This document shows, piece by piece, positions 1 through 38,553 of a stretch of 64,000 nt of DNA. Source of the stretch: Naegleria gruberi (taxonomy: Eukaryota); NCBI GenBank assembly GCA_000004985.1, contig GG738902.1, one strand, 5' to 3'. The notes beneath the pieces were generated by a model. That model was not told where the DNA came from, did not search any database, and worked only from the letters and a program-made list of their open reading frames with translations. The stretch's first letter is position 1. Every line of letters begins with the position of its first letter. The position numbers were made by a program, and so were the translations under genes.

Positions 1-1446
1 ATTTGTCCAGTTTGATCTGATGCGCTGGTTCTTACTTTGTTCTTTGGTAGCTCCTTTTGAGTTGCAAGTTTTGGTGATGTGAGAGAAGGAGTTGGAATGA
101 TAGCATCATCTTCGTCATCATTTATCAAATTAGGTGGCAATATAGGTGTAAAACTTTTAGAAGGGGTTGCTTTTTGAGAAACTTCAAATGTTCTGGACGA
201 ATTGGAGCCCAATAATTTTTTCCTCAAAACATCCTTTACCTCTTCAATAATTCTATCTTCATCCAATACTGCCACTTCTTTCTTTGTTGGATGCATATTT
301 ACATCTATTTTTTTAGGATTTACATTAATACTTAAAAATACGAAAGGATGTGTTGACTTTGGTAAATAAGGTTCGAATACACTCATTACGCCTTTTTGTA
401 ATTTACTATGAGATACTAGTCTTTCTGTTAAAGATAAGTTTAAATAATGAGAGAATAAATATACGTACTGTTAATAAATAAAGTAAATGCTTTTTCCTTT
501 GAGCTATAATTTACATTTGTAAAGTACATTTTTCCAGTCAACTCAATTTTTTCATTGTTAATATCTGCTTCAATAATTTCCTTCTCAATTTTTGGTCCAA
601 ATAGTGCTTTGATATTTTGTCTGACATTATTTTTGGTTAGTGTATGTACAATTGGTTTGGTTTCCCCTTGCTTAACAAAAGTTATTAACATTCTAAGAAT
701 CTATACCAACCTTTTTCAATGTAATACTGACACCAGTATTGAATAGTGCATAGGCTGTAACTATTTTTTGAATAGCTTTAGGTTCTGTATTCAAGTTGAC
801 AGATTCCCTTCGAGTTTTGTTATCAAAGAATAAATTTTCGGCTCGAATGATGGTACCTCTAGCTCCAGATCTTTTTTTCATTGGTCCTGTGAGTTTTCCA
901 TCTCTATAGGTTGCACTATTTCACAAACGTCAATAAATTTCATAAAAGGAAACCTACAATAGAGCAGTCGATTGTTGTTCCGTTTTTGATGTTATTGTCA
1001 CGTGAGCACAAGTACTAACACTTGACAAGGCCTCTCCTCTAAATCCGAATGTTGCAATACTTCTCAAATCCTCAAACGAAGATAATTTACTTGTGGTGTG
1101 ACGTTCACAAACAATTTCCAAATCTTTGGCCTTTAATAAATATAATTAATTAAATAATTTAATTTAAATATTCAAATATTCTCAATCAAAGACTACATAC
1201 TCCAATTCCACATCCATTATCAGTTATTTGAAAATATTTTAATCCTGCATCTCCAAACTCTATCGTAATAGAATCCGCTCCAGCATCAAGAGAATTTTCC
1301 AATAATTCTTTAATTGCATTAGAAGGTGCAGCAATAACTTCCCCTGCAGCAATCTTGTTAATCACTTCTTCCGAGAGAGGTTTGATCTTCCCATCAACTG
1401 GTGGCTGAGAAATGCCAACACTGCTTACTGTTTGTTGTGATGACAT
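1..1446 (-). CDS. MLH1: DNA mismatch repair protein MutL homolog (MLH1-like), partial. The N-terminal GHKL ATPase and transducer regions span several exons; the C-terminus lies beyond the window start.
   Basis: Exon 1 (1201-1446) reads MSSQQ...[30 protein letters not shown]...ITDNGCGI, which is the MutL/MLH1 ATP-binding motif. A GTATGT donor follows at 1200-1195. Downstream exons (693-1130, 440-691, 1-440) carry GFRGEAL-like and MLH1 transducer-domain matches. The ORF-track pieces line up collinearly with MLH1. Confidence 0.75.
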
Positions 1447-1706: not shown

Positions 1707-4205
1707 TTAATAAATTATGTCGAATTTAGATAATAAATTGAACATAGTTTTACCTGTTTTCTTTTGCAAATCATCATCATCCACAAAGCCGCTTTCACCT
1801 CTCTTTTCAATGATGGTTGCTGCTTCTTTATCACCAACACTTTTGAAACTCTGTAATTCATTGCAATTACATTCATTGATATATAAAAATTGATTTGCAT
1901 GGAGAAATTCCATTTGATTAGCAAATACTCCAAAGTAATCTGCAAAGTTTTCCTTGTGGATGACAATCAAATCATTATCATTTGGAATATTAGACACAGT
2001 CTTTCCTGTAATTATTATCGTGATATTATGAACTTCCAAAGGTTCGTCCTTTTCGTTAGTGAATTCTAATTTTCTGTTTTTTTCTAATTCCAAATTTACC
2101 TCTGCAAGTGAAAGATTACCACTTTCAGAATCTGCCCATTTGCACTGTATATGAAAAACCAGAATAGCTGTACCATGTTTTTCTTGTAATCCTAAAATAA
2201 GAACATCACCTGCCTTAGCAGCAGTGGCATTTAAAACCACATAACATTCCTTTTGTTTGAAATCTAAATTATTGTTTGCCCTTACATCAAAGTCAAATGT
2301 TGGATATCCAGAGCTTGTTGTAAGTTTGATCTTTTGTTGTTTACGATGAATGTGGTTGACTGCACACATCATTTCCACCTTTGGTATCCTTTGTAATTTA
2401 ATTGAAGCTGTACCAGATTGCATTTGAGTAAAAGGAAATAAATGTTCTATGGTTAGATCTTCTTCATTATCAGACAATAAAGATAATGTAAGATATAAAT
2501 ATCTATGGATAATTTTTTCCCAGCATCCACCGTTAATGTTCTTATCAAAGCTGAAAAACAAGTCTTCGTAGAGCTTAGTAAATTCAGTGGGTATTAAATT
2601 TCTCAATAACACTGGAGGGTATATTGCAATGAATTCGTCTTCTCCAACTTGGTCAAGCATAATATAACCCTTATTCTCCATATCAGAAAATGTAATTGGT
2701 GGTGCATGAGTTCCGATGACGTCTGTCTTTGATATTACTTTTCTTGTGAGAATGCAATAAAGGAGTGTTTTGGAATATAAACTATTGAACACAGGATACT
2801 TATTAGTCAGAGTAGCAAAGGCCCCTCCCCAAGCAGTTCTTTCAGTTAAATTAGTTTCTTGTAAATGTTGTAGATAAAACTCAATACCTCGAGGGAAACC
2901 TCCAAATAATCTTATAAAATGTCTAAGTTCTGTGTTCGTTCTCCAATTTATCAACTTATCATTGGATGGTTGAAGTTTGTCTAAAATATACCTTATTTTA
3001 CCTTCTGGTAATAAAGCAGTAATTGGAATGTATTCTGGTGTATATGTACTTCCAGCTAAATTATGACTTATGACACTGTGATAAGTACCTGCAAATAAAG
3101 GTAAAATATTTGTTTTGTGTCTTGGCATGTGTTGTATAAATTGCCCTATACCAGACATTATTTGTCGAAGAGGATTCAACTGTTTTTCGTTTGTGCCAGT
3201 ATTAACTGAATGTGCTTCATCTATTGCAATGTAAAATCCAATCTTGTCACTGTTTTCAAACAACCTTTGTCTAAAAGCAGTCAATACTGTAGTCATGGAA
3301 AGGGTTCTATTTTTCACAAATGCAGAAAATGATTTTCTAAATGCATCGAACTCCATATCGATAAAACATACAACTATAGAGTATATCATCCTCAATAATA
3401 ATGATTCAATGGGTCTAAAGCTCTCTACAATTTGATCATATGAGCAACCATTACCGAATGTAACAAATAATGGGAAATAATCAACACTTAACTCTTTTGT
3501 TTTGGCCAATAAGACACCCATTTCTTTCAACAATCTAGATTTCCCAACACCAGGTGCTGCTGCAATAAATGATAATCTTACATCGGATTTATCAATAATT
3601 TCCTTATCCTTGATCTTTGAATCTTGTTTTTGATAAACATTCATAATAGCATTTACAGGTTCATCTCTTCCAACAAACTCGAAATCCGTTCCAAATGAAT
3701 GTACAAGTATCCCTGATGACCGTTGAATTTTGTCATACATTGTTGTTACATCGAACTTTTCAGAATTAATATGTTTGGTGATAAACACCATCATTTGATC
3801 AACAGTTATTTCTCCCGAAATATTTTCAGTTTCTGCAATCCCTTCATCCGTTTGCTCATTATTTTTGATCAAATCTGTTATTAGCCAATTAGCAATGGCT
3901 TCCGCAATATCTTTGTGTATATCTTTACCATCCATCAATGAATTAATTACTGCCTGTTTTGCCTCTTGTGGTGTCTTATTGCTTTCTGTGCATGTTTGAT
4001 AAGCACAAATAGCATTGTACAAATGCATTCCTCTCAATTGTTGATTTAAATCATCATCACATAATCCCAGCTCCTCTTTCAATGCGTTCAACACATCACT
4101 TTGATTCCATTTCCTTATTTCTTCTATTGTTTTTCTCTTCTTGCTATTCGGTATGGAAAACAGTTTCGTTGCACAAGCTAATCTCTTTTTATCGTTTGAA
4201 GACAT
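1707..4205 (-). CDS. 832-aa P-loop NTPase (Walker A AAAPGVGKS, Walker B FYIAIDEAH) with a C-terminal region containing a candidate PD-(D/E)xK-like D...QEK motif. The architecture is Crinkler/STAND-like.
   Basis: A single long ORF with an ATG at 4205. The Walker A motif GVGKS is followed about 95 aa later by hhhhDEAH. The C-terminal segment ...KAGDVLILGLQEKHG...FHIQCKW fits a D-x8-QxK nuclease-like core. The N-terminal roughly 100 aa may form a helical SAM- or death-like module. Confidence 0.5.
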   Translation of the reverse strand: MSSNDKKRLACATKLFSIPNSKKRKTIEEIRKWNQSDVLNALKEELGLCDDDLNQQLRGMHLYNAICAYQTCTESNKTPQEAKQAVINSLMDGKDIHKDIAEAIANWLITDLIKNNEQTDEGIAETENISGEITVDQMMVFITKHINSEKFDVTTMYDKIQRSSGILVHSFGTDFEFVGRDEPVNAIMNVYQKQDSKIKDKEIIDKSDVRLSFIAAAPGVGKSRLLKEMGVLLAKTKELSVDYFPLFVTFGNGCSYDQIVESFRPIESLLLRMIYSIVVCFIDMEFDAFRKSFSAFVKNRTLSMTTVLTAFRQRLFENSDKIGFYIAIDEAHSVNTGTNEKQLNPLRQIMSGIGQFIQHMPRHKTNILPLFAGTYHSVISHNLAGSTYTPEYIPITALLPEGKIRYILDKLQPSNDKLINWRTNTELRHFIRLFGGFPRGIEFYLQHLQETNLTERTAWGGAFATLTNKYPVFNSLYSKTLLYCILTRKVISKTDVIGTHAPPITFSDMENKGYIMLDQVGEDEFIAIYPPVLLRNLIPTEFTKLYEDLFFSFDKNINGGCWEKIIHRYLYLTLSLLSDNEEDLTIEHLFPFTQMQSGTASIKLQRIPKVEMMCAVNHIHRKQQKIKLTTSSGYPTFDFDVRANNNLDFKQKECYVVLNATAAKAGDVLILGLQEKHGTAILVFHIQCKWADSESGNLSLAEVNLELEKNRKLEFTNEKDEPLEVHNITIIITGKTVSNIPNDNDLIVIHKENFADYFGVFANQMEFLHANQFLYINECNCNELQSFKSVGDKEAATIIEKRGESGFVDDDDLQKKTGKTMFNLLSKFDIIY

Positions 4206-4739: not shown

Positions 4740-5151
4740 TCAATTTAAAACTTTAGCAATTGCTGTTGGAGAGTTTCTGAAAGCTCCACAACCAAGGGCT
4801 GACAAGACCACATTTCTAACTCCATGTTGAACTGCAATCTTTAAAATGGCCTCAATACTGCCAATATTTCTCTCATCAATTTCTCCATCACATGATTGAG
4901 AGAGTTTGGAACTGCAGCAGTGGTAATGACATCGCCAATTTTCTCTTTTCAACATCTACAGATAACCATCTTATGATTTTGATGATGGAAGGACTGAAAG
5001 AGAGATGAATGGACATGTTATCATCGGAAGATTCTGGATAAACAATAATATTATTAAAAAATGTCTCATCAACAAACCCCTCACTATCAAATTGTTTGTA
5101 AAGAATTGGTTTTTCCTCCGACAAGTGAAAGTGTCCAAGTTGTTCAAGCAC
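4740..5151 (-). CDS. Macro-domain / microbial-type PARG-like (DUF2263-like) C-terminal fragment. It has two exons (4892-5151 and 4740-4857) joined across a 34-nt intron, and may be a truncated remnant.
   Basis: The terminal exon encodes ...IEAILKIAVQHGVRNVVLSALGCGAFRNSPTAIAKVLN, which matches the conserved C-terminal LGAxGCGxFxN motif of the DUF2263/PARG-like macro fold. A GTGATG...GGCAG intron at 4858-4891 restores the frame from the upstream exon. No QEE catalytic signature is seen. The 5' part overlaps QOR exon 1 on the opposite strand. Confidence 0.3.
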
Positions 5152-6406: not shown

Positions 6407-8512
6407 ATGCCTCCAACAAAACAAAATAAAAGGAAAAAAAAACAAGTGGACGAACCACACACTCCAACAAAAAAGACAAGGAGAGTTGCTTCCGATGCAA
6501 ATTTTAACAAAAGTATTGAAGCAGAAATACAAAATGACTTGTCCACGTTAGAAACAAATGAATCCCACCTTTTGAGAATGTTTATTTCTTCTGGATACCA
6601 TAAAAGTAAACCTTTTCAGGTTCCAGCATGGTGTACTTCTAAAAACAGATTCCTTTGCAAACTTTCATTGTTTAGTATTACCCCCAGCGATGTGTCTAAC
6701 CACAACGACGTTATTTCCTCTTTGGCAAAGGAGTTTGGAAGTCTAGTAAGCAAAGTTGCAGAAGAAAATGCATCAGAAACTTCTATTCGAAATCTACTAT
6801 CAAAAAGTCCAAAGTTTGAAATGAAAGTTTGTGACTCGATGGAAATTCAACATGCAAGGTGGTGTCTTTACCCTTTATTGTTCAAAGAAAGGGTATTTAT
6901 GGGATGTTATGAAGAGCCTAGCGAAGTGGAATTAACCATAAGGATGTTCAGCTCTCTTTGTAATATGAGTGATCTTTTTGGAGATACCAAAACAAATGCG
7001 TAAGTTTCTTTAGCTTCAATTTATGACTCATAATCGATACAGAGGGGTTCAAAGCTTTAAAGACAAAGAATTGAACGAAAAACTCAAAAAATTAATGCCT
7101 GATAGAAGTGTTTCATTTAAAATTCCACAGACAGGTTCGTATGTAATCCGTGTACTTCAAGAAGATAAGTCAGATATCCTCAAGGTGGCACAAAATCACC
7201 CAAATGAAGATAAAATTATTTGCTTGTTAAAAATTTCTCACAGCAAATTGATGAGAGAAATTGTAACCACACAACTGTCACACCAAGATTTGGAGTTTTA
7301 TAGTGGCGTGTACACTTATGGATTTTTAACAAGTAAAAATAGAGTTGAGATTCTTGGTATGAGATGTGATGTAATGCAGACCGATACTGAAATATTCCAA
7401 TTTAAGTATTATCTTGAACATTTAGGAAAATTCAACCTTGTTCATGGAGAACCTCTTTATCGTTTATGTGGATTTGTTATGGCTATATTTGCCACCTGTG
7501 CAAAACAACAAGAAAAAATCAACATGTTCTTGAAAACATACCCCAAATCAGATGAAAATAGCATTTTAATTGCTGAGAAGTTAAAGAAAAAACAATCTGT
7601 CTTTGAGGTCTCTGACGAAATAAGAATATGGCATGGTTTTAATAGATATGTAGTTGGAAAAGTGGAGTCTGTTCAGATATTCAAGGGAAAGTCTATTGCT
7701 AGAGTTAAATTATTAGAATCACCAAAATATTTATATATCAAGCACTCTATAGAACAAACAACTCCTAGAGTACCTCAATCTATGGGTTTTCCTTGCACAA
7801 TAGAGGTCAAACGAATAGATTATCATGTTGAGATATCATTTGAAGGTGAATGTTTGATAGATGTAAAATTAGATTTTGAAAAAGCTTTGAAAATGATTGT
7901 TCAATTATTGGTTGAAATGGGAAATGTTCACATGTTACAATATATTCATAATGATGTGAAAAGAAGTAATATTGTTATTTACAACAATTTTACCAAGTTA
8001 ATTGACTTTGAACTAGCAAAGAATTTTGACTCTTATGATAGGGAGAATCAAATTTGTGAACTTTTTGGCGACAAGGTTTATTCCAAAGCAGGTATGTTTT
8101 CATAATTTACGATATACTAATCCAACCAAATCATTAAGGAACTCCAAATATGATGCCTCCAGAAAAAGAAAAAACAGGATCTGGTTATATTACACCTATG
8201 ACCGATATTTATTGTTTGGGAATTGTTATTTCAGAAATATTAGATAGGAATCTTACAGTTTCACCATTTTCAGAAAATCAAAAACGAGTGATAACTAAGA
8301 TACGAGAAATGAGTACAAATATGATCCACAAAGATCCAAAACAGAGATGGGATACAGATCGGTGTCTTGAATATCTTCAATATGAAAAAATCATTTCAAA
8401 AAATGATATTCTCCATGAAAAGGAAAATCATGACAGAACCACAGAGTTTATTAATAGTGAAACACAAAAAAACCTTGTTGATGGTTCGATAGTGTGGAAC
8501 AATAGACTTTAA
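6407..8512 (+). CDS. Divergent protein-kinase-like protein. It has 3 exons (6407-6999, 7043-8091, 8139-8512) and an uncharacterised roughly 200-aa N-terminal region.
   Basis: The catalytic loop reads HNDVKRSNIVI (HRD-like, with K and N conserved), followed by DFELAK (DFG-like) and GTPNMMPPE (APE-like), then DIYCLGIVISEIL. Introns are 7000-7042 (GTAAGT..CAG) and 8092-8138 (GTATGT..AAG), with consistent phases. No clear glycine loop or VAIK lysine is present, so it may be a pseudokinase. Confidence 0.6.
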
Positions 8513-15163: not shown

Positions 15164-18100
15164 ATGCAAAGTCAGAACATGTTTGAGTCTTCTTCGGCTC
15201 CACCTTTGGAGACCAATTATAATAATAATGATGATAACAATAATCAAAATCCACTCTCTATTAGTATGCAGCTATCGGAAATGGCTAATCACATAGTAAA
15301 TCCAAAATATAATATGATACATGCAAGTGTGGAGACTGATCATGCGAGAGAATATAAATTATTGGTCGAAAAGAGAAAATCAATGGCTGGTGCAATTGAT
15401 GTTGGAGGTGCTAAAGGAAATAATGGACAAAACGGAAGACCAGGTAAGAATGGAAGACCTGGAAGAGCTGGAACAACTCGAAGTGAAAGTAAAATTGGAG
15501 ATCGAGGTGAAAATGGAGAACATGGTACAAATGGTGAAGATGGTTATCATGCAGAGAATGGTAGAGATGGTGATGTATTGAATATTCTATTGGATCGATC
15601 ATCTCATCCACAAGAGTTATTTGTTAAATATTCGAGAGAACAATTGAGAGCAAATTATATTCAAAGCCAGAGATATGGATATAATGCAAATATTATTGAT
15701 GAACACAGATTTAATTCCAGTTCAAGATTTCCTCTCAATTCTCCAAATGAGTTTGTCTTGTTTAAATCAAATGGAGGTGACGGTGGAGATGGAGGTAATG
15801 GTGGTATGTAGTAACTTTCATTTGAAATTTGGAATTAACAACTTCATCAATAGGTCACGGAGGAAATGGTGGTAGTGGTGGAAATGGATCTAATGGTACT
15901 GAACAAGGAGGAGATGGTGGTGATGGAGGTAATGGTGGAGATGGTGGCAGGTAAGTTTTGAATTTAAAATATATTTACAATTTGTAAAGAGCAAGTTATG
16001 GAGGTCATGGAGGTAGTGCAGGTTTAATTTTCATTAATGTAAGTGATAGGATGAATAGAGTTGTTGTAAATTTATTATTATAGACCTATGATCCAAGATT
16101 ACTTGTGTTGACAAGATCAGAAACTCATGGAGGAAGAGGAGGTAAAATTGTAAGTGTATAAATTCTTTAACCTATTTACTTTAACTTTACAATAGGGTAT
16201 TTGTGGAGAGTTTGGTGTTGGTGGTAAAGGAGGATCAGCTGGAAAGTAAGTTTTGTATTTTTGAATTTAATTTGTAATTGAATTTGTAAAGGGGTTTACT
16301 CAAGATGGGAAGACATGGCAGACAGGGCTCAAATGGTACAAAACAACAAACCAACATTGCACACGAGTCACAAAATGGAAGCGATGGTGTAACTGTTTAT
16401 AGAGTTCTTGATTTCCGTACTAATCAGATAATGTTTGAAGGACAAAAGTCTTTTACAGCAAGAATTCTTTCATTTGATGTTGAGGCTAATGATGACGATG
16501 GAGTTTTTGAACCTGGCGAAGATATTACATTGAAAAATTTCAAAATCCACAACGATGGAGATATTCCTCTTCCTGCTGGATCAATTCTTCGTATTGCTTA
16601 CGATCCAAATGGATTTATTTTCAGCGAAGATCAATATATTCTTCCTGAGATTGGTCCAAAACAAACACTCAACTTGACAAATACTGCCTTAACCGCTAAA
16701 ATTTTACCAAATGCTTTGAAAACCTCAGAGCTTTCTAAAAACATTTCTCTCAATGTTCAAGTTGACTTGTTTGATAGAATTTTTGAGGAATCAATTATGG
16801 GATGTACCATTCTTGTTCAATATCCAATCAATATTACAAATATTGATTATTTAAAGCAAATGGGAAGAGGAGATTCTTCAGATATCATTATTTCATTCAC
16901 AAATTTGAGTAAGAGACCATATCAATTTGTGTATAATGTCATTACACATGATCAACTTTTCCTTGTAGAGACTGAACAAAGGACAATTTCATTAATGTCA
17001 CAAATCAAACCAGAAAACATCAACATGCATCCACATTCTGTAATATTAGGCTATTGTTCTGAATTTTATCAAAAACAACAAATGGAAATAGAATTGATAT
17101 ATAAGGACACAGTTATTCAAAAAGTCAGCAAATCCATACAAGCAGTCCCTCACTTCAATCCAACTGTAATAGACAGCACAGATGTGTTACTAATTACAAA
17201 TAATACCTTTAGAAGAGAAGATTTCAAGGCATTTTCTGAAATATTCCAACTTTTAAATATCAGAGCTAATTTTTGGGATCTTGATTTTTACAAAGGGATT
17301 TCATATCAAGAAGATACACGAGCTAGACATACCATTTCATGTGTCGATAAGTATAGAGGAAAGCTGATTATTTTATGTGCTAAAAACATGGATGATGTAC
17401 AAAAGTTTATGCCTATGGATCTTATTTATCATTTTGGCCAATATGAAGCTGATCAAGTATTGGCTGCTGACTTTAAGTACAATAGTGGTCTTTTGGTATT
17501 GACACCTGAATTACCAAAGCAGGAGGAAATGAAGAAAATTCTTGGGGACTCTCATGTTGCTGCTCATGTCACTGAATTTGATTCTGACAAGCAATTTTGT
17601 GGATATTACAAATTACTCTATCCTACCCAAAAGGATGTTGAAGAAAAATGCAAAGAATTGGAGATGGAAAAGGAAAAGAATTCCCTTGAGAGATATGTTG
17701 TAAATGTTGACACTTTAGAAATCAAGCAAGTTAAGAGTGATTCTTGGGTTTCATGGAAGTATTCATACGGAAAGGCCTCAATGTTCAAGTTGAATGTAAA
17801 TATTTTCCAAACACTTGTTGGACTCGCATTCAATAGCGAAACAAACTTTGATGATTTTGGAATATTTTCAGATCAATCAACAGGCGAAATTATTGATAAC
17901 CCAACCGTAATTGAACTATTGAAGAATAGGAGGAATACTTTACATTTTAACTTACTCTATTCTATTGCTTATAGTTTGGGATTGGAATCCAAATTACAAG
18001 TTTTACAAGAATTGGATGGTAAAACTGAAACTTCCAGACTCATCAGAGACCTGATTAGATGGACATTATTTGAATCCGTGAAGAGAGAGACTAGACTTGG

Positions 18101-18467
18101 TAGTGGAGTATCTCCAACATTGGAAAGATTAGTTCATACACTTGTACATAAGCCACACTTAATTTGTGAAACTACACTCACCACAGTCATTCATATTTTC
18201 GAAAGAGCTAGTAGTTTCACGTATTATGGTAGTTTTGTTCCATCCTCTTTGAGCTTTGGTTACAAATTCAAAGAAAAGAGAAATGAAATTATCAAATTGA
18301 GTGAAACAGCTGATGTAGAGTTGAGAAGGGCTGGCCTAGAGGCAATCAACAATCAAACTATTCAATATTTCGATATAGATAACACCATTTTAAAGGCAAA
18401 GTCAGAGATCTCTACAACAGAGTTCCCTAAATTGAGGGACGTAGCTTTGACTTATCTTATTGAGTAA
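15164..18467 (+). CDS. Large mosaic protein encoded by 6 exons. It comprises an N-terminal region, collagen-like Gly-X-Y runs, GG[DN]GG glycine-rich micro-exons and a 720-aa uncharacterised C-terminal domain.
   Basis: Exons are 15164-15803, 15854-15950, 15990-16038, 16084-16149, 16196-16245 and 16292-18467. All introns are 40-50 nt, with GTATGT or GTAAGT donors and AG acceptors, and phases close without stops. Exon 1 contains GAKGNNGQNGRPGKNGRPGRAG and GDRGENGEHGTNGEDG triplets. The micro-exons encode HGGNGGSGGNG...GGDGGDGGNGGDGG. The last exon begins MGRHGRQGSNGTK and continues through a large domain with no recognised motifs. Confidence 0.6.
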
Positions 18468-25356: not shown

Positions 25357-28023
25357 ATGCTGGCAGGGACATCGTCATCAAGCAATGCTGCTAATTTGTT
25401 CCCTGTAGGGCATTCATCATCATCAGGTCATGTTGTTGTTGGTGGTGGAGGTGTTTTATCGTCATCATCAGCATCAGCATCGATGGTTGTAGGAACAACA
25501 ACAACCAATTCTACAACAACATCAGGAGTAGCAAATAATATGAAACCGTGTTATTATACATTCTTTTCTGATGATTGTACTTCTCCTCTTCAACAACAAC
25601 CATCAAAATCAAAATTTCCATCATCTCCGAATTCTAGTGGTAGTGGTGGATCAGTTCCACACTTTATTAGTAAACAAGAGAAGGAAAGATTAAAATTAAA
25701 TGCTAAAAAGACTGTTAGTTTGGCTTTCATAGGAATGGGAAATCATAAGGCTATTGATATTACAAATCAAGTTTTAAAAAAGCAAGTATTTTACGACAAA
25801 ACTAAAACAAATACTGTGCCGAATAATCAGCCAACAAACACATCAACAAAATCAACATCCGAAAATAGTGGATTTGTTATTTTAAATAATGTTGTAAATT
25901 CCAATATCTCCGATCAACAAGGTTCCACTCCAAGAAAACAACATCAAATATCTATTGATTCTTACCATGATGTGGATCAAAATAAGGTTTATTTATTTGC
26001 TGACCTTATGCAAACACCTGAACATTGTAAAACATTCACTGAACAATTCTTACCTTACAAAATGTCAACAGTTGGCCAAACAAATTCTGGATATCAAAAT
26101 ATCTTGACACCAAACACCAATCATTCCTTTGATTTGGAGCATGCTATTGATTTTGAAAGAGTTTTACAAACTCTCTTATTTTTATTCCAAACATCACATA
26201 TGATTTTCTTTATTTTACCTTCATCTCAAAATAGTGGCAGTGTTTGTTCAAGTCTTCACCAAAATTTACTTTCTTTATTCAGAGTTTTACAAATTAGTAA
26301 GCAATATGTTAACTCAAAGGTTTTGGACGTAATCCATCAAGAAAAATCACAAACTACACCAACAAATCCAACCAATGAGAATCCGACTATGAAGATGATT
26401 AACACTATTCTCACAAGTCCAGTCATGTTGTCACTATATAGTCCAGGAAGAGTTTTACCTGTTATTTCCTTTATTTTCGTTCAGGAAAGAGAAAATTGGA
26501 ATAAGATGGCCAGTTTATGTGAACAACAAAAATTAAATGTTGATGATGAATTGGACGAATACATGCTGAACAGAATGCAAAATGGAGTTGAAAATCAAGT
26601 GAGGAATCATATTTTAAAGAAGGGAAAGTTCTCGGGTGTAGATTCTATCAAGACACCTCTTTTCATGATGGATCCAAACACTTGCACATTTGTAATTGTT
26701 GAGCCTGAAGATTCAGAAATTTCTCCATTCGGAACAAAGGTTTCTCTCGAACATTCAAGAAAGGCCCTCTTCTCCTTAAGTGATATTTCTGATAGTGAAG
26801 CTCTTCAAAAATCTAGTATCAACTCTAGAGCCCATCACAAATCAAAAAAGCCATCAGATTCTGCTCAAAGCCGTGAAACTTATATTGGTGTCAACAAGAT
26901 TGCTGGTTTCATTCAAAAGCAATTGGATTATTTTACCAAGCAAATGCAAGCTGGTAAAAGATTTATCTTGCCAACCTCATTGAATTGGTATCAAGCAACT
27001 TTTGCATTTGAAGAATTGTTTTCTCTTAATAATGAGGAATTGCAAAAGATTTTAGTAGACAAGACAAAGGATATTATCCATCCAAACTTTTCATTCTCTG
27101 ACAAGCGTTGCTCTCATGCGTTCAAGATAGCTACAGATCACTTCTTGCAAAAGGTACAAGCTTCTCAATCTACAAATGCAAAAATGATTGAGTTGGTCAA
27201 TGAAACAATTTCCAAGTACAAGACTTTTGCTTGTGGATATTTCTCCTCTCACTATAACCAACAACTTCAAACTTTCCTTCAAGCAAACACTCCAAAGCCA
27301 TCTCAAACACAACCTCAAAAGTTCGTTCCTTATCAATTTGTTACTGGTTGTCCAATTTCACAAATTTCTATTCAAAAAATTGGTGATTATACTTCTATGA
27401 ATGGAAGAAATGGAGCTATCAGAAGAGGAAATCAAATTATTAACTTTATTCAAGTACATACCATGTTATCTAGAGATAGATACCAAAAGAGAAAGAAGAA
27501 AAAGCCAACAAATAACCAAGAATACGCCCAAGATACTGAAGGAAATGATACATTCTTGATTGCTTTTGAATATGAAACTCCAAGAAAGGAATATGTTCTT
27601 AATCTTGATCAATTGACTCAATTATTCAAGCAAACTCATCCTACTGAAGGTCTTGTCAGTGCTTTGGATATGATTCAAAAAACCAGTATCCCTCTCTTCC
27701 TTCCTTCAAATTGGTTCTTATCTGACAAGAAAGGATCATTTGCCAGATTGAAGCAAATCACTATTGGAATTCCAGATGCTGATTTGACAAATACCATCAC
27801 CTTCTCACCTAAAATTTCTGTTCCTGTAAAGCAAGAAGGACCAACACCTGCCACCACTATTGTAGCTCCAAAGATTTTCCCTCTCTGCAACATCAAACAA
27901 GGAATTGTTTTTGGAAGAAATCAATTTTTAACTATTGATATTGATTATGATAGTAACCAACTTAACAATTATGAAGATGTTACTCAATTATTCCTCTACT
28001 CAAATTCTATTCAAATCAACTAA
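25357..28023 (+). CDS. SMG8-like protein (nonsense-mediated decay factor family), 888 aa.
   Basis: After a Ser/Thr-rich N-terminus, VSLAFIGMGNHKAIDITNQVLKKQVFYDKT resembles the SMG8 N-terminal G-domain-like motif (VVGIFGKTALRLNSEKFSLVNTVCDRQVF). The hydrophobic core LQTLLFLFQTSHMIFFILPSS is also similar. The rest of the large protein has no other assignable domain. Confidence 0.4.
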   Translation: MLAGTSSSSNAANLFPVGHSSSSGHVVVGGGGVLSSSSASASMVVGTTTTNSTTTSGVANNMKPCYYTFFSDDCTSPLQQQPSKSKFPSSPNSSGSGGSVPHFISKQEKERLKLNAKKTVSLAFIGMGNHKAIDITNQVLKKQVFYDKTKTNTVPNNQPTNTSTKSTSENSGFVILNNVVNSNISDQQGSTPRKQHQISIDSYHDVDQNKVYLFADLMQTPEHCKTFTEQFLPYKMSTVGQTNSGYQNILTPNTNHSFDLEHAIDFERVLQTLLFLFQTSHMIFFILPSSQNSGSVCSSLHQNLLSLFRVLQISKQYVNSKVLDVIHQEKSQTTPTNPTNENPTMKMINTILTSPVMLSLYSPGRVLPVISFIFVQERENWNKMASLCEQQKLNVDDELDEYMLNRMQNGVENQVRNHILKKGKFSGVDSIKTPLFMMDPNTCTFVIVEPEDSEISPFGTKVSLEHSRKALFSLSDISDSEALQKSSINSRAHHKSKKPSDSAQSRETYIGVNKIAGFIQKQLDYFTKQMQAGKRFILPTSLNWYQATFAFEELFSLNNEELQKILVDKTKDIIHPNFSFSDKRCSHAFKIATDHFLQKVQASQSTNAKMIELVNETISKYKTFACGYFSSHYNQQLQTFLQANTPKPSQTQPQKFVPYQFVTGCPISQISIQKIGDYTSMNGRNGAIRRGNQIINFIQVHTMLSRDRYQKRKKKKPTNNQEYAQDTEGNDTFLIAFEYETPRKEYVLNLDQLTQLFKQTHPTEGLVSALDMIQKTSIPLFLPSNWFLSDKKGSFARLKQITIGIPDADLTNTITFSPKISVPVKQEGPTPATTIVAPKIFPLCNIKQGIVFGRNQFLTIDIDYDSNQLNNYEDVTQLFLYSNSIQIN

Positions 28024-28327: not shown

Positions 28328-29845
28328 ATGAGTTCATTATTAAAGAGAAATTTACGCACTTGGATGAAAACTGGAAAACCAATCAATTTCCTTCCCTCGT
28401 TATCCTCATCATCCAATTATCATCACCATCAGTTAATTATTACCAACACAAATACTAGTCACTTGAGCAATCAGTACAATAGAATCGGAAGTGGTTGCAT
28501 GAATAATTCTTCATCTTGCTATCACACTTGTCTTTTCAATTCTTCTAACAATTCATCATCCACAACAATAACAAGTGATACAATTGTTTCCCTCATTCAA
28601 CAAGTAAAATCCATTATTCCAGCCAATGCAAGAGTATTACAATATGAACAATCAGAAGAAAAGAAGAGTTTAATCTTTTCACTTGCTCAACAAATTCAAT
28701 CCATTGTTAGAATGAAGAGAAATTCAGAAGAAGAAGTATCATCATTGAAATTGGAATTATTTGAAAAGGATTTACTTTTAACACCAGAAGCTTGTGTTGA
28801 TGTCTTGCTTTCTCTTTATTATTATCATCAATTTGCTGGAGATTTATCAAAGAAATCATTATATGATAATATTTTCTCAAGTATTAATCATGCTATTGAG
28901 AGTAGTATTGAAAAACCAAGTCCTGTACTCTACCACTTGAAAGGAATGTTTTTACAAAGATATTCCAGAGATGTTTTACTGCCAAGCTTTAAACAAGAAG
29001 AAGCTGTTGATAAATGCACAGAGGGTATTAAGAGTTTTGAAAAAGCTTTAAGGTTATATGAAAATAGTGAACTCAAGGATTCTAAGGAACTATACTATGT
29101 TCATGGAGATATTGCTATTTTGAATTTGTGGTTGTCAAATATGTTTAAAGCTCTTGCTTTTGTGAGACCAAACATCAGTCAATTTGAAGAATCTGAAACA
29201 GAAAAGGAATTCCAAAGAATGATTGAACAACAATTTTCTGAAGATGCTGTCAGAGAACAATTGGAAAATATGTCCAAGTCTAAGCCAGTTCAATCTGTTC
29301 CAGAAATGGAAAATTTGTTTTATCAAACTGGTGAAAGAGCTATCAAACATTTTAAAAAATCATTTGAAAAAGTAAGAGAAGCCAAGACAGTTTATGCCTA
29401 TGCTGGTGCTTTATTCTTAATGGAAAAAGTTCCAGAAGCAATCAACGGTTATGGAATGCTCTTTGAAAATAATAGAGAATTATATAATGATTTAATTGAA
29501 GAAACTCTCAAGAAGGAAACAACAGTCAACTATTCACTTTGTTTATATCACAATCATTCATTTTCACAAGCTAAGGATATTTTGAGTGAAACTCTTAAGG
29601 AATTCCCTGATGAAGCTCCACTGGAGGCATTCTTACTTCATCTTCAAGTTGCTGAAGACCCATCATCATTCAATGGAGAGAAAGGAAAGCAAGCTATTCA
29701 AAAATTCAAGAAATATTACTTTGTAATTGAGCAATTAGAAAGAGAAATGTCTAGAGGTGATATTCAAAAGATTAGTTATGATCCAAGACAACTTCAATTT
29801 TTCAAGAATATCTGTCAAGCTTACATGTCTGAATTAAAACAATAA
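28328..29845 (+). CDS. Hypothetical helical protein of 505 aa, possibly TPR-like, with a mitochondrial-presequence-like N-terminus.
   Basis: A clean ATG with an A-rich context, a basic Ser-rich N-terminus and a largely alpha-helical repeat-like body. No catalytic motifs. Confidence 0.4.
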   Translation: MSSLLKRNLRTWMKTGKPINFLPSLSSSSNYHHHQLIITNTNTSHLSNQYNRIGSGCMNNSSSCYHTCLFNSSNNSSSTTITSDTIVSLIQQVKSIIPANARVLQYEQSEEKKSLIFSLAQQIQSIVRMKRNSEEEVSSLKLELFEKDLLLTPEACVDVLLSLYYYHQFAGDLSKKSLYDNIFSSINHAIESSIEKPSPVLYHLKGMFLQRYSRDVLLPSFKQEEAVDKCTEGIKSFEKALRLYENSELKDSKELYYVHGDIAILNLWLSNMFKALAFVRPNISQFEESETEKEFQRMIEQQFSEDAVREQLENMSKSKPVQSVPEMENLFYQTGERAIKHFKKSFEKVREAKTVYAYAGALFLMEKVPEAINGYGMLFENNRELYNDLIEETLKKETTVNYSLCLYHNHSFSQAKDILSETLKEFPDEAPLEAFLLHLQVAEDPSSFNGEKGKQAIQKFKKYYFVIEQLEREMSRGDIQKISYDPRQLQFFKNICQAYMSELKQ

Positions 29846-32736: not shown

Positions 32737-34605
32737 ATGTCACTCACAGATCTTCCCAGAGAAATATTTCTTCTAGTTCATTCCTACACTGATTTTCAAA
32801 CTATTCTAAACCTGCGCTCAGTTTCCAAATATTTATCCATTGTGAATAAATATTATCAATCGGAAATTGTGAATTTCACTAAAGATTATTCCGAATATTA
32901 TTCACTTGGAGAGATTCTATTAGATTTTAGAGGAAAGGACAATTTAATGTCACTAGTCGAACCATCAATCATGTTTTTTGATGAAAATATTGAAAAGATC
33001 GAATCTGTCATATTGAATTTGGATCAATGCACAACACAAAGTTTAGGATTTATTGGAAGTTTATTCGGTAATAATTGTAATCTCATTTCTGATTTGAAAT
33101 TGGATTTGTGGTTTTCCAGAAAAATCAAATTTGAAAAAATTGATGTAAAATTCATTTCAAAATTTGAAAAATTGCAAAATCTTTCAATGGTTTTGGTTCA
33201 TGCCAATGAATGTGTGGATTTGATTTTTGATGAGTTGGAAAGAGGAAAATTTAATGAATTGAAGAAATTCGAATTGGCCATTCGTTGCACCACTTTATTG
33301 AGTCCTCAAATTTTGAGATTGGCTAATATTTTGGAACAAATGAAAACGTTGAAACACTTGACATTGGAAATATTACACGTACAACCTTCACAAAAAGCAA
33401 TGAATACTTTGATAGAGTCACTCTATTATATTCCATTTCTCAATCTTAGAGTAAAGTTGAATGCTCAATTCACGATGGAACCATTGCGTAATCTTTCTGG
33501 GAAATGTAGAGAGCTTTCCATGAAAATTGAAAATGGAGGAGCCACTCAGGAAATTTATTTGGATCAGGTTAAGAATTTGGCAAAATTAGAGATTGATTCT
33601 TTGCCAAACTCTCGTGCAATGTTGAATTCATATATGAAGGAATTGATTATTGGGGATTATGCTTCAAATTTGCAACAACTTTTAAAGAATGATTTTCTCT
33701 TGGGAAATACTTTTGACAATTTGAAGAGATTGGAATTGATTCATGTTGGAAATGTATTGGATGCTCCTAATGTATTTCCATCTTTGGAATATGTACATTG
33801 TTCAAATTGCTCGTTTAGGAGTAGCATTGAGTTCTTTTCTAATAGTAGAAAATTGAAGAGTTTAGTGTTGAAATTTTGTGTTTTTGAAACAAGATCTACA
33901 ACAGAATTGAGGTGCAAAGAATTGGAAGAATTGGACATTACCACCTCTGGTACCTGCACTAAATTTCTTGATATTCCTGCATTGAGAGGACTGAAACTCA
34001 AAAAACTAACCATCTTTCCTGTAACCACATTTTTAGCTTATTCAAACTTTGTATCCAATGCAAGTCAGACATTAGTGGACCTATCAGCTATTGAGGAAAT
34101 GTCAAGTTTGGAATATTTGAATTTAGGAGAATATTACGACAAGTTTTCTTTTGACAAGTTGACTAATCTGAAATATTTGGAGATTCGAGATGTTAGATCT
34201 GAGGGGATTTTATCATTTTGTACAAATGACCATTTACTTCATAATTGCATTATTCATTTTGAAAATACTTATGTGAGGGATATTTTTCCAACTTATTCAG
34301 AAAATGGAATTGCTAAGGTTGACAAGTCAATTCATCGATTAATTATTTCCAAATTGAAAGGGTTGGGTTGTCATGTGAAAGGTGTTAAATTTGTTATAAT
34401 ATCAACAAAGTATATCTACGTTTCTTTCCATGTGCAATCCAAGAAACAATTGGTTTATTCATTTCCTAGTTTCATTCTAATTAGTAGAAAGCAACCATAT
34501 TCAATTTTGGCAAGTGGAAGAAGTTTCGAAAAGAAACAAGAAAAATTCGAAGATTCATGGGATATACCTCCAAATGTCGACCAAAATAAATGTGATATCC
34601 AATAA
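32737..34605 (+). CDS. F-box / leucine-rich-repeat protein.
   Basis: An N-terminal F-box (LTDLPREIFLLVHSYTDFQTILNLRSVSKYLSIVNKYY) is followed by repeated L..L..L.L leucine-rich segments. Single exon of 622 aa. Confidence 0.6.
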   Translation: MSLTDLPREIFLLVHSYTDFQTILNLRSVSKYLSIVNKYYQSEIVNFTKDYSEYYSLGEILLDFRGKDNLMSLVEPSIMFFDENIEKIESVILNLDQCTTQSLGFIGSLFGNNCNLISDLKLDLWFSRKIKFEKIDVKFISKFEKLQNLSMVLVHANECVDLIFDELERGKFNELKKFELAIRCTTLLSPQILRLANILEQMKTLKHLTLEILHVQPSQKAMNTLIESLYYIPFLNLRVKLNAQFTMEPLRNLSGKCRELSMKIENGGATQEIYLDQVKNLAKLEIDSLPNSRAMLNSYMKELIIGDYASNLQQLLKNDFLLGNTFDNLKRLELIHVGNVLDAPNVFPSLEYVHCSNCSFRSSIEFFSNSRKLKSLVLKFCVFETRSTTELRCKELEELDITTSGTCTKFLDIPALRGLKLKKLTIFPVTTFLAYSNFVSNASQTLVDLSAIEEMSSLEYLNLGEYYDKFSFDKLTNLKYLEIRDVRSEGILSFCTNDHLLHNCIIHFENTYVRDIFPTYSENGIAKVDKSIHRLIISKLKGLGCHVKGVKFVIISTKYIYVSFHVQSKKQLVYSFPSFILISRKQPYSILASGRSFEKKQEKFEDSWDIPPNVDQNKCDIQ

Positions 34606-34951
34606 TACAAACTAATCAAACTAATCTTTGACCTTTCCATTCATTCTTAATATTTCCACATTAATGTGGGAATCTCTTTTTGTGAAAAAAACAGCAGCAC
34701 TGTTGGAAATTCATTCATATCCAATAATATCCATCGAACCAGATAATGACCAATGTTGGAATAATAAACTAGCTCATTATCCGTTATTATCACAGGAAGA
34801 TTGGCAACTTTTATATGTTGATATGCACAACTTTTTAATCTAAGATACTACCATACTACCACCAATAACTTTCTCTGGAGGTGGCATCCTCCTCAAGCTG
34901 AGGGTTCATTCGAATTTGTTGAAGAATCTTAATAAAATTAAGAAAACAAAA

Positions 34952-36796
34952 ATGATATCGAACAAAACAATTCAATCCGTTGATGAAGTGGTCGTAGAGA
35001 ATGAATCTCCCTTATCATGCTCACAATTAGAAAATTGTGGTTTTGTTGTTGTAATGTATCTCATGAGAACCAAAGATATGAACATTATTGTAGCGAATGG
35101 AGAGGGACCCTTTCCTTCTCTTCCACCACCTTCCGAAACAACTTCTCTCTCCTACGGCCAAGTGGATAAAGAACAGCAGAAAGGCTTGTGGTATTTTCTA
35201 TTTGGTAATAGTAGGGATAATAGTAAAAAGCCGGAGAAGAAACATGCTCTGTTTGTGAGGGATTTACGACTTGATGAATGTCATGGAGTGGAAAGTCGAA
35301 GAGTTGAGATGAGGAGATTATATTCAAAGTTTGAAATTGTTCTTCAAATTGTTAGGGGGGTGGAGTATGTTTTGCTACCACGAAATTGGTATGACATATC
35401 ATGTTGGAGAGAAAGACTTGGTAATGACATTTTTGGTCTCTCTTTGAGGAATAGAAAGTTTCCAGTATTCGAAACATCAATCAGATATGGAAATGCTTAC
35501 TTGACGGATTATGGAACCAAGTTTGGTATTCCAGAAATTGAGCAGAATGTGATTTTTAATTATTCAAAATGCACCAACGAACAAAGAGTGAAAATGGTTG
35601 AAAAAGTATACGAAATAGACTTTAAAAATGTTGAAATTCATCCTCTTTATTTCATTTTTGCATTTACAGAGTTTGGAAAGAGTTTGAGATATTTCAAATT
35701 GTTAAAAAAATTTGGGAAATCACCTTCTCCATATTTGGAAACCATCTTGTCAAGCAACTCCTTAAAATTCATAAGCAAATATGATTTAGACATTATTAGA
35801 CACTTTAAGTTTTGGCTTCACGTCCCAATCAATGTTTGGTATTTTGAAACTACTGATTTCTCAGACAGTATTAAGGTTGGAGAATATGATTCAACACCAA
35901 TTCGTAGAATCGATTGGTTGAAGGAAAGATTGCTAAGTGATGATTTACAGACTCCTTTCGAGATTGAACATTCTGATGGTATTGACATTTCATTTGGTAA
36001 AGCAGGAGATGAAATAGTGCAACGAATGAATTTGGCTGTAATAGAAAAGTGTTATTACAAGCAGGAATATTTATCTTGCAGATTAGTTGAACTGGATGAT
36101 GGAAATTCACATGCAAATCAAGATGTTTATCCAATATTTTGGAGAGAGGACACTTTTGTAATTCACTCTGAAAACTTGCAATTGTTGTGTGAGAATCTAC
36201 TCAACATTGTTTCAATGATTGTTAAAAATTGGGATTTAACTGTTGAAGAAGATGTTCCTTTTTTGGATTATGATTTGGTGGATATGAGATATTTATATAG
36301 AATTGAATTAAGTTTAAAACAGTCAAAGATTATTAGCTCCAAATTATCTCAACATCTAGACAGTTTCAATTTAACTCCTAAACAATTAGAAAGTGCAAAT
36401 TGTGTTGTAAAGACAATTACAAGTCAAATTAGAAATGTCGAAATGATGGCAATGTCACTATTACAATTAAGCAACCAATACGAAAAAGACTTGTTTGTGA
36501 AAATTCCTCACAGATTTCAAGCCATCATTATGTTAAGTGAATGGATTGATCACTGTTTGGATTTCACGCATTCAATTCAAGGATATTTCTTACAATATTT
36601 CAATTTTCCAAATCAAATTGACAAATATTTCAGCGATATTGTTATTGAAAAGTTGATCATGAAACAAATCAAAACTCAGGACATTTATGAAATGGCAAAA
36701 TACCTGTCCATCATGTCAACTGCCATACAACATGATCTATTTTTGTATCATGCTGGATGGATTATTGATGCTTTTTCTGCTTGGATTGAGAAATAA
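34952..36796 (+). CDS. Hypothetical protein of about 615 aa.
   Basis: A long uninterrupted ORF. The first in-frame ATG is at 34952; the listed start is TTG. No recognisable domain. Confidence 0.4.
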   Translation: MISNKTIQSVDEVVVENESPLSCSQLENCGFVVVMYLMRTKDMNIIVANGEGPFPSLPPPSETTSLSYGQVDKEQQKGLWYFLFGNSRDNSKKPEKKHALFVRDLRLDECHGVESRRVEMRRLYSKFEIVLQIVRGVEYVLLPRNWYDISCWRERLGNDIFGLSLRNRKFPVFETSIRYGNAYLTDYGTKFGIPEIEQNVIFNYSKCTNEQRVKMVEKVYEIDFKNVEIHPLYFIFAFTEFGKSLRYFKLLKKFGKSPSPYLETILSSNSLKFISKYDLDIIRHFKFWLHVPINVWYFETTDFSDSIKVGEYDSTPIRRIDWLKERLLSDDLQTPFEIEHSDGIDISFGKAGDEIVQRMNLAVIEKCYYKQEYLSCRLVELDDGNSHANQDVYPIFWREDTFVIHSENLQLLCENLLNIVSMIVKNWDLTVEEDVPFLDYDLVDMRYLYRIELSLKQSKIISSKLSQHLDSFNLTPKQLESANCVVKTITSQIRNVEMMAMSLLQLSNQYEKDLFVKIPHRFQAIIMLSEWIDHCLDFTHSIQGYFLQYFNFPNQIDKYFSDIVIEKLIMKQIKTQDIYEMAKYLSIMSTAIQHDLFLYHAGWIIDAFSAWIEK

Positions 36797-37077: not shown

Positions 37078-38553
37078 ATGAAAATTATTGAACAAGAAGA
37101 TATGTTAGAAGAAGAACTTGTTGTAATCCATTTGGATACTTCCATTTTCAGTCCACTCCTCAAATCAACAACAGACAACCAATCCAAATTATTAAAGCAC
37201 TGGTGTATGGAGGCAGATCTATTCAAATATTCCATCATTACACCTCTGGAATATTGTATTGAACAACCAAACCTTAATGGACAGTATTGCAAAATTAGTA
37301 AAGCTCCCTATGTATACTCTAAGAAACTACCATTGGAAGAGGAGGGATCGAAATGGATATGGGGTATGGATTCGATATTTGTACCAGATTATGTTGGTTC
37401 AAAACATGGCTCCTTATTGAGTGTTAAACAATCAACAAATAACGATGAAATAATTTGTGAAAAAGAAACTGAAAGATCAGATGCAACTATTCCAGTTGTT
37501 GTAGAGATGAGAAACAATAGAGAGTTTATGATGGAGAGTGTACAGAAAAATGGTTTATTACTTTATTATGCTCATCCTGATTTACTTTTTGATCAAGAAT
37601 TATTATTGGAAGCCATAAGAAATAATGTATCTGCTTTCCAATATGTTCCATATAATCTCAGAAGAGATGAACAATTCTTAAAAAGAGCTATTGAAAAATG
37701 TGGAGATGTGTTTTTATACCTTACTGGAGAGTGGAGAAAGAGAAATGATTTATACGAAATATCTTTGAGAACATGTGAAAACAAGCTAAAACTATTCGAA
37801 AGATTGGATCCTTCAATTAGAATGAATTATGCACCCAGTATGGTATCAAACTATTGGAGAGCAATCTATTTCCTCAACCCTTCAGACTCTCGATACTCTC
37901 AACTAATCCAGATTATTCTCAATTCGAATCAAGTTTCTGACTCTGAATTAATCAATTCAAATTTAATAACCAACAGGAAAGATTTATGGAAATATCTCGA
38001 TATTTCTTATAGGGCACTTATCTTGGCTAAAAGAGAGTGCATTGATAATGAAGCAATCATTAAGGCATTGAGAAGTAATATGATCATTTCCAACTATCTA
38101 TCGTATTACCAATGGAATGCAATCAAGGAAAATCATTCTCTTATAATGGAAATAATTCAAAATCCAATAGAATTAACAATTGAAGCTGCAACATTTATTA
38201 TTAAAAATTCTAATCGGGATAATGTCAGAGCACTCGTAAAAAGATATCCTTTTCTAGCAGAAAAGGTTACTGAGGTGAAAATGATGTTTGATCCTTATAT
38301 TCTTAGATATTTGCCGTCAAACAAACAATATGAAACTATTCGAAAGTGTGCCAAACTAATAATGGATGAAAAAGAGTATTTCGAAACAGTAGGATATTAT
38401 TTCCAAGGAAGCAGTGCCCTCGCCTGGATTTTAAGAGAAAGATTTACCATATCACATCCTGGCTTGGTCATTCCTTACCATAGATTTGGAAAAAAACTCG
38501 ACTGTCAACCAATTTGTTGGGATTTTGAGTTGTGGTATGAGAGTATCAACTAA
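37078..38553 (+). CDS. DUF4116-repeat protein, a paralog of the 9730-10665 gene.
   Basis: Repeats such as NNREFMMESVQKNGLLLYYAHPDLLFDQELLLEAIRNNVSAFQYVPYNLRRDEQFLKRAIEKCGDVFLYL follow the same [ND].[RK]E..L.A...N..A..Y. periodicity. Single exon. Confidence 0.55.
   Translation: MKIIEQEDMLEEELVVIHLDTSIFSPLLKSTTDNQSKLLKHWCMEADLFKYSIITPLEYCIEQPNLNGQYCKISKAPYVYSKKLPLEEEGSKWIWGMDSIFVPDYVGSKHGSLLSVKQSTNNDEIICEKETERSDATIPVVVEMRNNREFMMESVQKNGLLLYYAHPDLLFDQELLLEAIRNNVSAFQYVPYNLRRDEQFLKRAIEKCGDVFLYLTGEWRKRNDLYEISLRTCENKLKLFERLDPSIRMNYAPSMVSNYWRAIYFLNPSDSRYSQLIQIILNSNQVSDSELINSNLITNRKDLWKYLDISYRALILAKRECIDNEAIIKALRSNMIISNYLSYYQWNAIKENHSLIMEIIQNPIELTIEAATFIIKNSNRDNVRALVKRYPFLAEKVTEVKMMFDPYILRYLPSNKQYETIRKCAKLIMDEKEYFETVGYYFQGSSALAWILRERFTISHPGLVIPYHRFGKKLDCQPICWDFELWYESIN

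Follow-up and report, generated by a model that had tools for sequence, protein, structure and literature searches.

Can a protein recorded so far only as a 'predicted protein', with no Pfam domain above threshold, be given a concrete architecture, and does its likeness to Crinkler effectors make it an exported toxin or an enzyme of the cell that encodes it? The question is raised by an open reading frame (ORF) at positions 1707..4205, minus strand, of a 64,000-nucleotide stretch of Naegleria gruberi DNA (contig GG738902.1, assembly GCA_000004985.1), here called the window. A sequence-only reading had proposed a P-loop nucleoside triphosphatase (NTPase) with a possible C-terminal PD-(D/E)xK-like nuclease in a Crinkler/STAND-like arrangement. 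That reading of the architecture is supported: judged by homology, the 832-residue product is a relative of the NTPase–helix-turn-helix (HTH)–restriction endonuclease (REase) 'cargo' fused to Crinkler headers in early-diverging fungi. The gene probably encodes a four-part intracellular ATPase–nuclease, made up of a lineage-specific helical N-terminus, an AAA+ NTPase with lid and winged helix, a PD-(D/E)xK nuclease and a ComEA-like helix-hairpin-helix (HhH) tail, with proposed ATP-controlled DNA cleavage in conflict, defence or self-destruction. The protein thereby gains a concrete, testable assignment, as do its relatives.

A Crinkler-type body under a different head

A word-indexed search returned six relatives only, all of them Heterolobosean (Willaertia, N. 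lovaniensis, N. fowleri). An exhaustive profile search over 1.84 billion cluster representatives yielded 383 proteins at E<=1e-3 and 141 at E<=1e-10, many covering the NTPase through to the C-terminus. Two named-database searches with alignments as queries gave only 5 matches and 1 match and evidently missed the distant relatives, whose taxonomy was taken from exact-sequence cluster look-ups: Haplosporangium and Modicella (Mortierellomycota), Gigaspora and Glomus (Glomeromycota), Jimgerdemannia and Endogone (Endogonales), the chytrid Gaertneriomyces, the dictyostelids Acytostelium and Tieghemostelium, and an N. gruberi paralogue on a different scaffold (NAEGRDRAFT_65017). The remaining relatives come from metagenomic or read-archive assemblies. 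The relatives are confined to Heterolobosea, dictyostelids, early-diverging fungi and metagenomes, and they include paralogues, at about 35-38% identity to the window protein; the copy number in N. gruberi, which the sequence-only reading had proposed to count, is at least two. Pfam scans and invariance were assessed on an alignment of 49 relatives, residue conservation on 43 core members. The trypanosomatid retrotransposon hot spot family of Pfam (RHSP) matches neither the 832-residue protein (E<=10) nor its relatives.

The link to Crinkler proteins was found in both directions. The Crinkler N-terminal domain (PF20147) scores above its gathering threshold in 8 of the 49 aligned relatives, at 37.9-78.1 bits (P0032, P0051, P0052, P0063, P0078, P0112, P0124 and P0150); Glomus cerebriforme RIA92650.1 (P0063) and Haplosporangium KAF9197305.1 (P0032) are two such proteins, Crinkler-headed with a homologous body. 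The forward profile search reached Crinkler-headed proteins at E=3.5e-26 to 1.3e-10. In a reciprocal, query-independent test, a hidden Markov model (HMM) built from the eight Crinkler-headed fungal proteins alone was run against all window ORFs; it matched the target ORF alone (190.6 bits, E=1.8e-54 for a nominal database of 10^6), aligning HMM positions 139-799 collinearly and in one piece with residues 161-820. Because the reciprocal match is a single collinear alignment, the entire body behind the header is homologous to that of the Crinkler-headed fungal proteins. Nothing in residues 1-160 corresponds to the header part of the HMM (1-138), and the ubiquitin-like, LxLFLAK-type Crinkler header (PF20147) has no match in the 832-residue protein even at E<=10. 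Heads vary across the family: SAM in a single member, ankyrin in a single member, Crinkler in eight. The window protein has its domains in the order NTPase, HTH, REase, which among Crinkler C-terminal architectures is the commonest (Zhang et al. 2016, as given in PMC5289972). The earlier comparison with Crinklers is upheld for the body; the ubiquitin-like header is lacking, and the host is neither fungus nor oomycete.

The frame itself is intact, as had been read from the letters: the ORF list gives an uninterrupted single exon of 832 codons plus stop, and the product is 100% identical to the NCBI/UniRef entry 'predicted protein [Naegleria gruberi]', whose record carries no precomputed Pfam domain. 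An in-frame stop lies two codons 5' of the ATG, and the Willaertia magna orthologue (62% identity) has the same start, MSSN[DN]KKRL; for these two reasons the annotated start is considered sound, with no hidden upstream exon. The window DNA is nuclear, about 33% G+C, and genes around the target are interrupted by introns. A single-sequence Pfam scan of the protein (E<=10) gave sub-threshold AAA_22, AAA_16 and HHH_3 only, a PADLOC run gave no match, and a PDB sequence search with the protein alone gave nothing significant. The features assigned to the gene are:

1707..4205, minus strand: complete single-exon coding sequence, 832 residues plus stop (ORF list, exact N. gruberi protein match, upstream in-frame stop)
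3726..4205, minus strand: N-terminal alpha-helical region, residues 1-160 (AlphaFold2 (AF2) model, predicted local distance difference test (pLDDT) about 50-80)
3660..3683, minus strand: pre-Walker-A motif FEFVGRDE, residues 175-182, of 'hhGR(D/E)' type (kept in most of the 43 core members)
3006..3593, minus strand: AAA+/STAND-like P-loop NTPase core, residues 205-400
3537..3563, minus strand: Walker A AAAPGVGKS, residues 215-223 (G219/G221/K222 in 40-41/43)
3210..3236, minus strand: Walker B FYIAIDEAH, residues 324-332 (D329 in 43/43, E330 in 39/43)
3084..3092, minus strand: sensor-1-like AGT at a strand end, residues 372-374 (G and T each in 41/43)
2550..3005, minus strand: helical lid, then winged-helix-like element at about residues 500-537 (from model and conservation)
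2889-2903, minus strand: GGFPR motif in the lid (R439 in 43/43)
1926..2549, minus strand: predicted PD-(D/E)xK restriction-endonuclease-fold module, residues 553-760
2517-2519, minus strand: nuclease residue E563
2229-2231, minus strand: nuclease residue N659
2205-2207, minus strand: nuclease residue D667
2139-2147, minus strand: nuclease residues Q687-C-K689
2088-2090, minus strand: nuclease residue E706
1725..1892, minus strand: C-terminal ComEA-like HhH domain, residues 772-827 (HHH_3, helical in the model)

The N-terminal module, which had been called helical from the sequence, is helical in the AF2 model as well. It is hydrophilic, with an SKKRK basic cluster at residues 21-25 that is a possible nuclear localization signal, and it has no hydrophobic, signal-peptide-like start. 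Residues 1-160 have no Pfam match, and their only relatives are in the Willaertia orthologue, the N. gruberi paralogue and one further protein (P0002, P0165/P0009, P0011). A SAM-like identity, suspected from sequence patterns, gained no support from Pfam for the Heterolobosean proteins and was dropped; SAM reaches significance in one metagenomic relative only, and a Jimgerdemannia protein has it in its UniRef name.

Another helical header is found on the N. lovaniensis and N. fowleri paralogues. It has a repeated 'GGAGL' and no detectable relation to the first 150 residues of the window protein. The helical unit repeated in it, some 70 residues long (W..eEV…L…GGAGL…v.PLY.a.FdG..L..IV), stands at the head of many Naegleria proteins with differing P-loop NTPase bodies; carriers in N. 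lovaniensis, N. fowleri and others are P0003-P0006, P0016, P0031, P0036, P0040, P0068 and P0103. It matches no Pfam family and looks like a Heterolobosea-specific, interchangeable header, with a logic analogous to that of the Crinkler header.

At the other end, residues 772-827 read as a ComEA-type HhH (INECNCNELQSFKSVGDKEAATIIEKRGESGFVDDDDL). HHH_3 reaches only E=0.036 in the window protein (14.6 bits against a cut-off of 27). The same domain is found in 14/49 relatives at the homologous position (best E=1.4e-12), and the region is collinear in the eight-protein HMM alignment.

The strongest rival to an intracellular enzyme is an exported toxin in the classical Crinkler style, delivered to prey, competitors or non-kin, whose nuclease would damage DNA and whose helical N-terminus would be an alternative header. 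The homology to the bodies of Crinkler-headed proteins suits it, as do the header swapping in Heterolobosea, where one GGAGL header is common to proteins with different NTPase bodies, and the varied, unrelated alpha-helical headers of Crinkler (CR) proteins and their occurrence in free-living eukaryotes, reported in PMC5289972 and PMC12957317. The window protein, however, has neither a Crinkler header nor a hydrophobic N-terminal signal, Naegleria has no known delivery route, and the N. gruberi family is small (at least two copies found) rather than a large, diversified effector repertoire. Export is therefore held to be unlikely; since signal peptide and Crinkler translocation header are both absent, the protein most likely works inside the amoeba.

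NTPase, lid and nuclease module

Walker A and Walker B, as the sequence-only reading had named them, were found exactly and are conserved family-wide. They are preceded by FEFVGRDE, which we take to be a motif of the STAND/ORC type (Leipe et al. 2004). The family's NTPase motif set comprises φxφxGR(D/E), GxGK(S/T)R, hhhhDE, an (A/S)GT sensor-1 strand and a GGxPR lid, followed by a winged-helix-like pattern, 'LExxGhhxL…hxhP'; in the AF2 model this last element is a helix (506-512), two strands (516-519 and 525-528) and a second helix (531-537). Near-invariant positions in the 49-sequence alignment are G219, G221, K222, R272, D329, E330, G373, T374, R439, P530 and K689.

Pfam recognises the NTPase generically and below threshold (AAA_22, E=0.0028; AAA_16), and the relatives' NTPases give weak NACHT, ATPase_2, NPHP3_N and AAA_35 matches. 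Archaeal Orc/Cdc6 aligns with the NTPase region over about 250 residues, and BrxC, NLRs, Avs and RdrA match it as well as Orc/Cdc6 does. The domain is, on its motifs, an AAA+ NTPase of ORC/Cdc6–STAND type with lid and winged helix, and its predicted catalytic motifs are intact. The STAND set is present: a Walker A/B P-loop NTPase, a GxP-type motif in a helical lid, then a winged helix. Pfam finds no repeat-type sensor (TPR, WD40, LRR), and the model places nuclease and HhH straight after the winged helix; the protein is accordingly called STAND-like and not a full STAND protein, because the sensor domain is missing.

The nuclease assignment draws on conserved residues and on an AF2 model of residues 553-772, built from a 36-sequence alignment (pLDDT 88.1, predicted template modelling score 0.88). 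The signature runs E563 ... N659-x3-A-x3-D667 ... Q687-x-K689 ... E706, and the 43 core members keep it closely: E563 in 40/43, N659 in 41/43, Q687 in 41/43, K689 in 42/43 and E706 in 37/43, with D in 39/43 and N in 4/43 at position 667. The model contains an alpha-beta-beta-beta-alpha-beta core, in which about 75 inserted residues separate helix 1 from the core sheet. The first long helix bears E563; N659 closes one strand and D667 opens the next (E116-123); Q687 and K689 close the following strand (E129-137), and E706 lies on the helix after it. As modelled, this layout of E563, N659, D667, Q687-x-K689 and E706 is the canonical PD-(D/E)xK active-site placement.

The sequence-only reading had located the module less accurately. 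Its fold is borne out by the model, but it spans about residues 553-760 rather than the last 150 or so, the tail being HhH; the proposed 'D-x8-QEK' pattern is really D667-x6-Q674-E675-K676, of which D667 belongs to the signature, while the triplet varies (QEK/QKK/KLQ/QLK) even in close relatives.

A glutamine, Q687, occupies the usual (D/E) position of (D/E)xK throughout the family. Enzymes of the NgoMIV/Cfr10I/Bse634I/SgrAI type take a missing acid from a neighbouring helix. By analogy, E706 may supply it here, and in the model E563 and E706 could complete the active site. The alternative is a nuclease fold that has lost catalysis and serves in DNA binding or oligomerisation, so that the protein would be a scaffold or switch that binds DNA in an ATP-dependent way; glutamine in place of the acid in 41/43 members and the lack of any significant nuclease Pfam model speak for it. 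Database comparisons weigh against the nuclease assignment: although AF2 gives a confident fold, Foldseek against PDB with the model and the nuclease profile against PDB both returned nothing significant, and the same profile against Pfam returned only marginal, single-member matches (PDDEXK_13 0.032, Mrr_cat 0.044, DUF4365 0.13). An inactive domain is nonetheless considered improbable.

For the ATP-controlled nuclease, which is the preferred reading, a working model can be outlined. The winged helix and the HhH tail would bind DNA with no strong sequence preference. ATP binding and hydrolysis would bring about oligomerisation or a conformational switch, and this switch would license the nuclease (E563/D667/Q687-x-K689/E706 site) to cut DNA. 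The protein would then act against foreign DNA, as a nuclease of conflict or defence, or it would be a regulated self-destruct nuclease, and not an exported toxin.

Genomic surroundings

Cellular genes of ordinary kinds lie nearby: a MutL-type GHKL ATPase exon, an oxidoreductase, a protein kinase, an M16 peptidase, MIF4G, Kelch and DUF4116. A family HMM search of the ORFs found no second copy or tandem paralogue within the 64-kb window, and a local gene cluster was rejected accordingly. No synteny with Willaertia was found, the orthologue lying among unrelated genes, which is uninformative at such evolutionary distance.

These surroundings bear on whether the gene is part of a mobile element, or a recently domesticated remnant of one, in which a nuclease resembling TnsA and an AAA+ regulator resembling TnsC, fused together, would act in transposition. 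Near the gene there is no transposase or integrase, nor any terminal inverted repeat other than the AT-rich matches expected by chance; there is a single copy in 64 kb, and the 62% orthologue and the distant paralogues show the divergence of old cellular genes, not of recent transposition. Tn7-like TnsA/TnsC modules resemble the protein only in so far as TnsC shares the fold of the NTPase, and element ends and transposase are lacking here. A transposon origin was rejected, and a mobile-element role is very doubtful.

A housekeeping factor of DNA replication or repair, whether an ORC/Cdc6-like initiator or a repair nuclease, is highly implausible: the fold is ORC-like, but no ORC/Cdc6 Pfam family is matched (such a placement, together with a missing nuclease fold, would have spoken against the sequence-only reading), the likeness to BrxC, NLRs, Avs and RdrA is just as good, and the spread is patchy, lineage-specific and multi-copy, with nuclease and Crinkler, SAM or ankyrin head fusions.

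Several neighbouring genes deserve separate mention. Downstream of the target, a mismatch-repair ATPase of MutL/MLH type (HATPase_c_3, E=2.2e-6) has its first exon at 1186-1446 (minus strand), which starts only about 260 bp beyond the target's stop codon; that a DNA-repair gene lies beside a putative DNA nuclease gene is probably coincidence. Directly upstream, short ORFs at 4740-5151 (minus strand), in a gene with introns, contain 'VVLSALGCGAFRN', which presumably resembles macro-domain/PARG-like (TIGR02452-type) proteins; a 71-residue fragment of these ORFs has no Pfam match. A protein kinase gene at 6407-8512 (plus strand) shows Pkinase (E=1.5e-6) at residues 286-341 of a 360-residue ORF and continues in 8150-8512; about 200 residues before the kinase and a separate 198-residue ORF there have no Pfam match. 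REase plus kinase is the second commonest Crinkler body; the family HMMs do not match this kinase gene and so give no evidence of a link to the target.

Further along the window, domains of unknown function were found at 16305-18467 (plus strand; DUF7932, E=6.5e-16) and 37078-38553 (plus strand; repeated DUF4116, E=6.7e-19). Five uncharacterised Naegleria ORFs of 505-907 residues without a Pfam family at E<=1e-4 lie at 25357-28023, 32737-34605, 34916-36796 and 28328-29845 (plus strand) and at 53641-56364 (minus strand).

Meaning and comparison with known systems

One cargo body is carried under different heads in different lineages: the ubiquitin-like Crinkler head, SAM, ankyrin and lineage-specific helical regions. 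A wider interpretation, advanced tentatively and thought less probable than its opposite, is that the family serves eukaryotes as a cell-autonomous immune module of NTPase and nuclease, a functional counterpart of bacterial Avs/BREX-type ATPase–nuclease defence; its use as a Crinkler effector in pathogens would be a secondary co-option achieved by header swap. Phagotrophs of the soil and early fungi (Naegleria, Willaertia, dictyostelids, Glomeromycota and Mortierellomycota) would in that case use the family against giant viruses, endosymbionts or ingested DNA. The case bears on the question, raised in PMC12957317, of why 'effector' genes persist in free-living, non-pathogenic eukaryotes, and in Naegleria, a free-living and experimentally tractable host, intracellular defence can be set against delivered toxin. 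The architecture itself has been known since 2016; the new part is an unannotated family member with a lineage-specific head, not a new category.

Among bacterial systems, Avs3 and Avs4 have the nuclease at the N-terminus, whereas it is C-terminal here; and unlike Avs3/Avs4, BrxC of BREX, RdrA and Hna, the window protein has no TPR/LRR/WD40 sensor array and no PADLOC membership. From ORC/Cdc6 initiators, the window family differs in its patchy, multi-copy occurrence, its fused nuclease and HhH tail and its lack of a Pfam ORC/Cdc6 match. AF1548 (PDB 1y88) and Mrr/NgoMIV-type nucleases share only 13-20% identity with the module, give no significant sequence-profile match and are not joined to the NTPase of this family; the module differs from them further in its glutamine at the usual acidic position and in its insertion of about 75 residues. 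The closest likeness is to the Crinkler-headed proteins of Glomeromycota and Mortierellomycota. The window protein departs from them in lacking PF20147, in carrying instead a helical N-terminus confined to a few proteins of Heterolobosea, and in its host, a free-living amoeboflagellate; what both share is the whole succession of GR motif, P-loop NTPase, GGxPR lid, winged helix, E...D...QxK...E nuclease and HhH tail.
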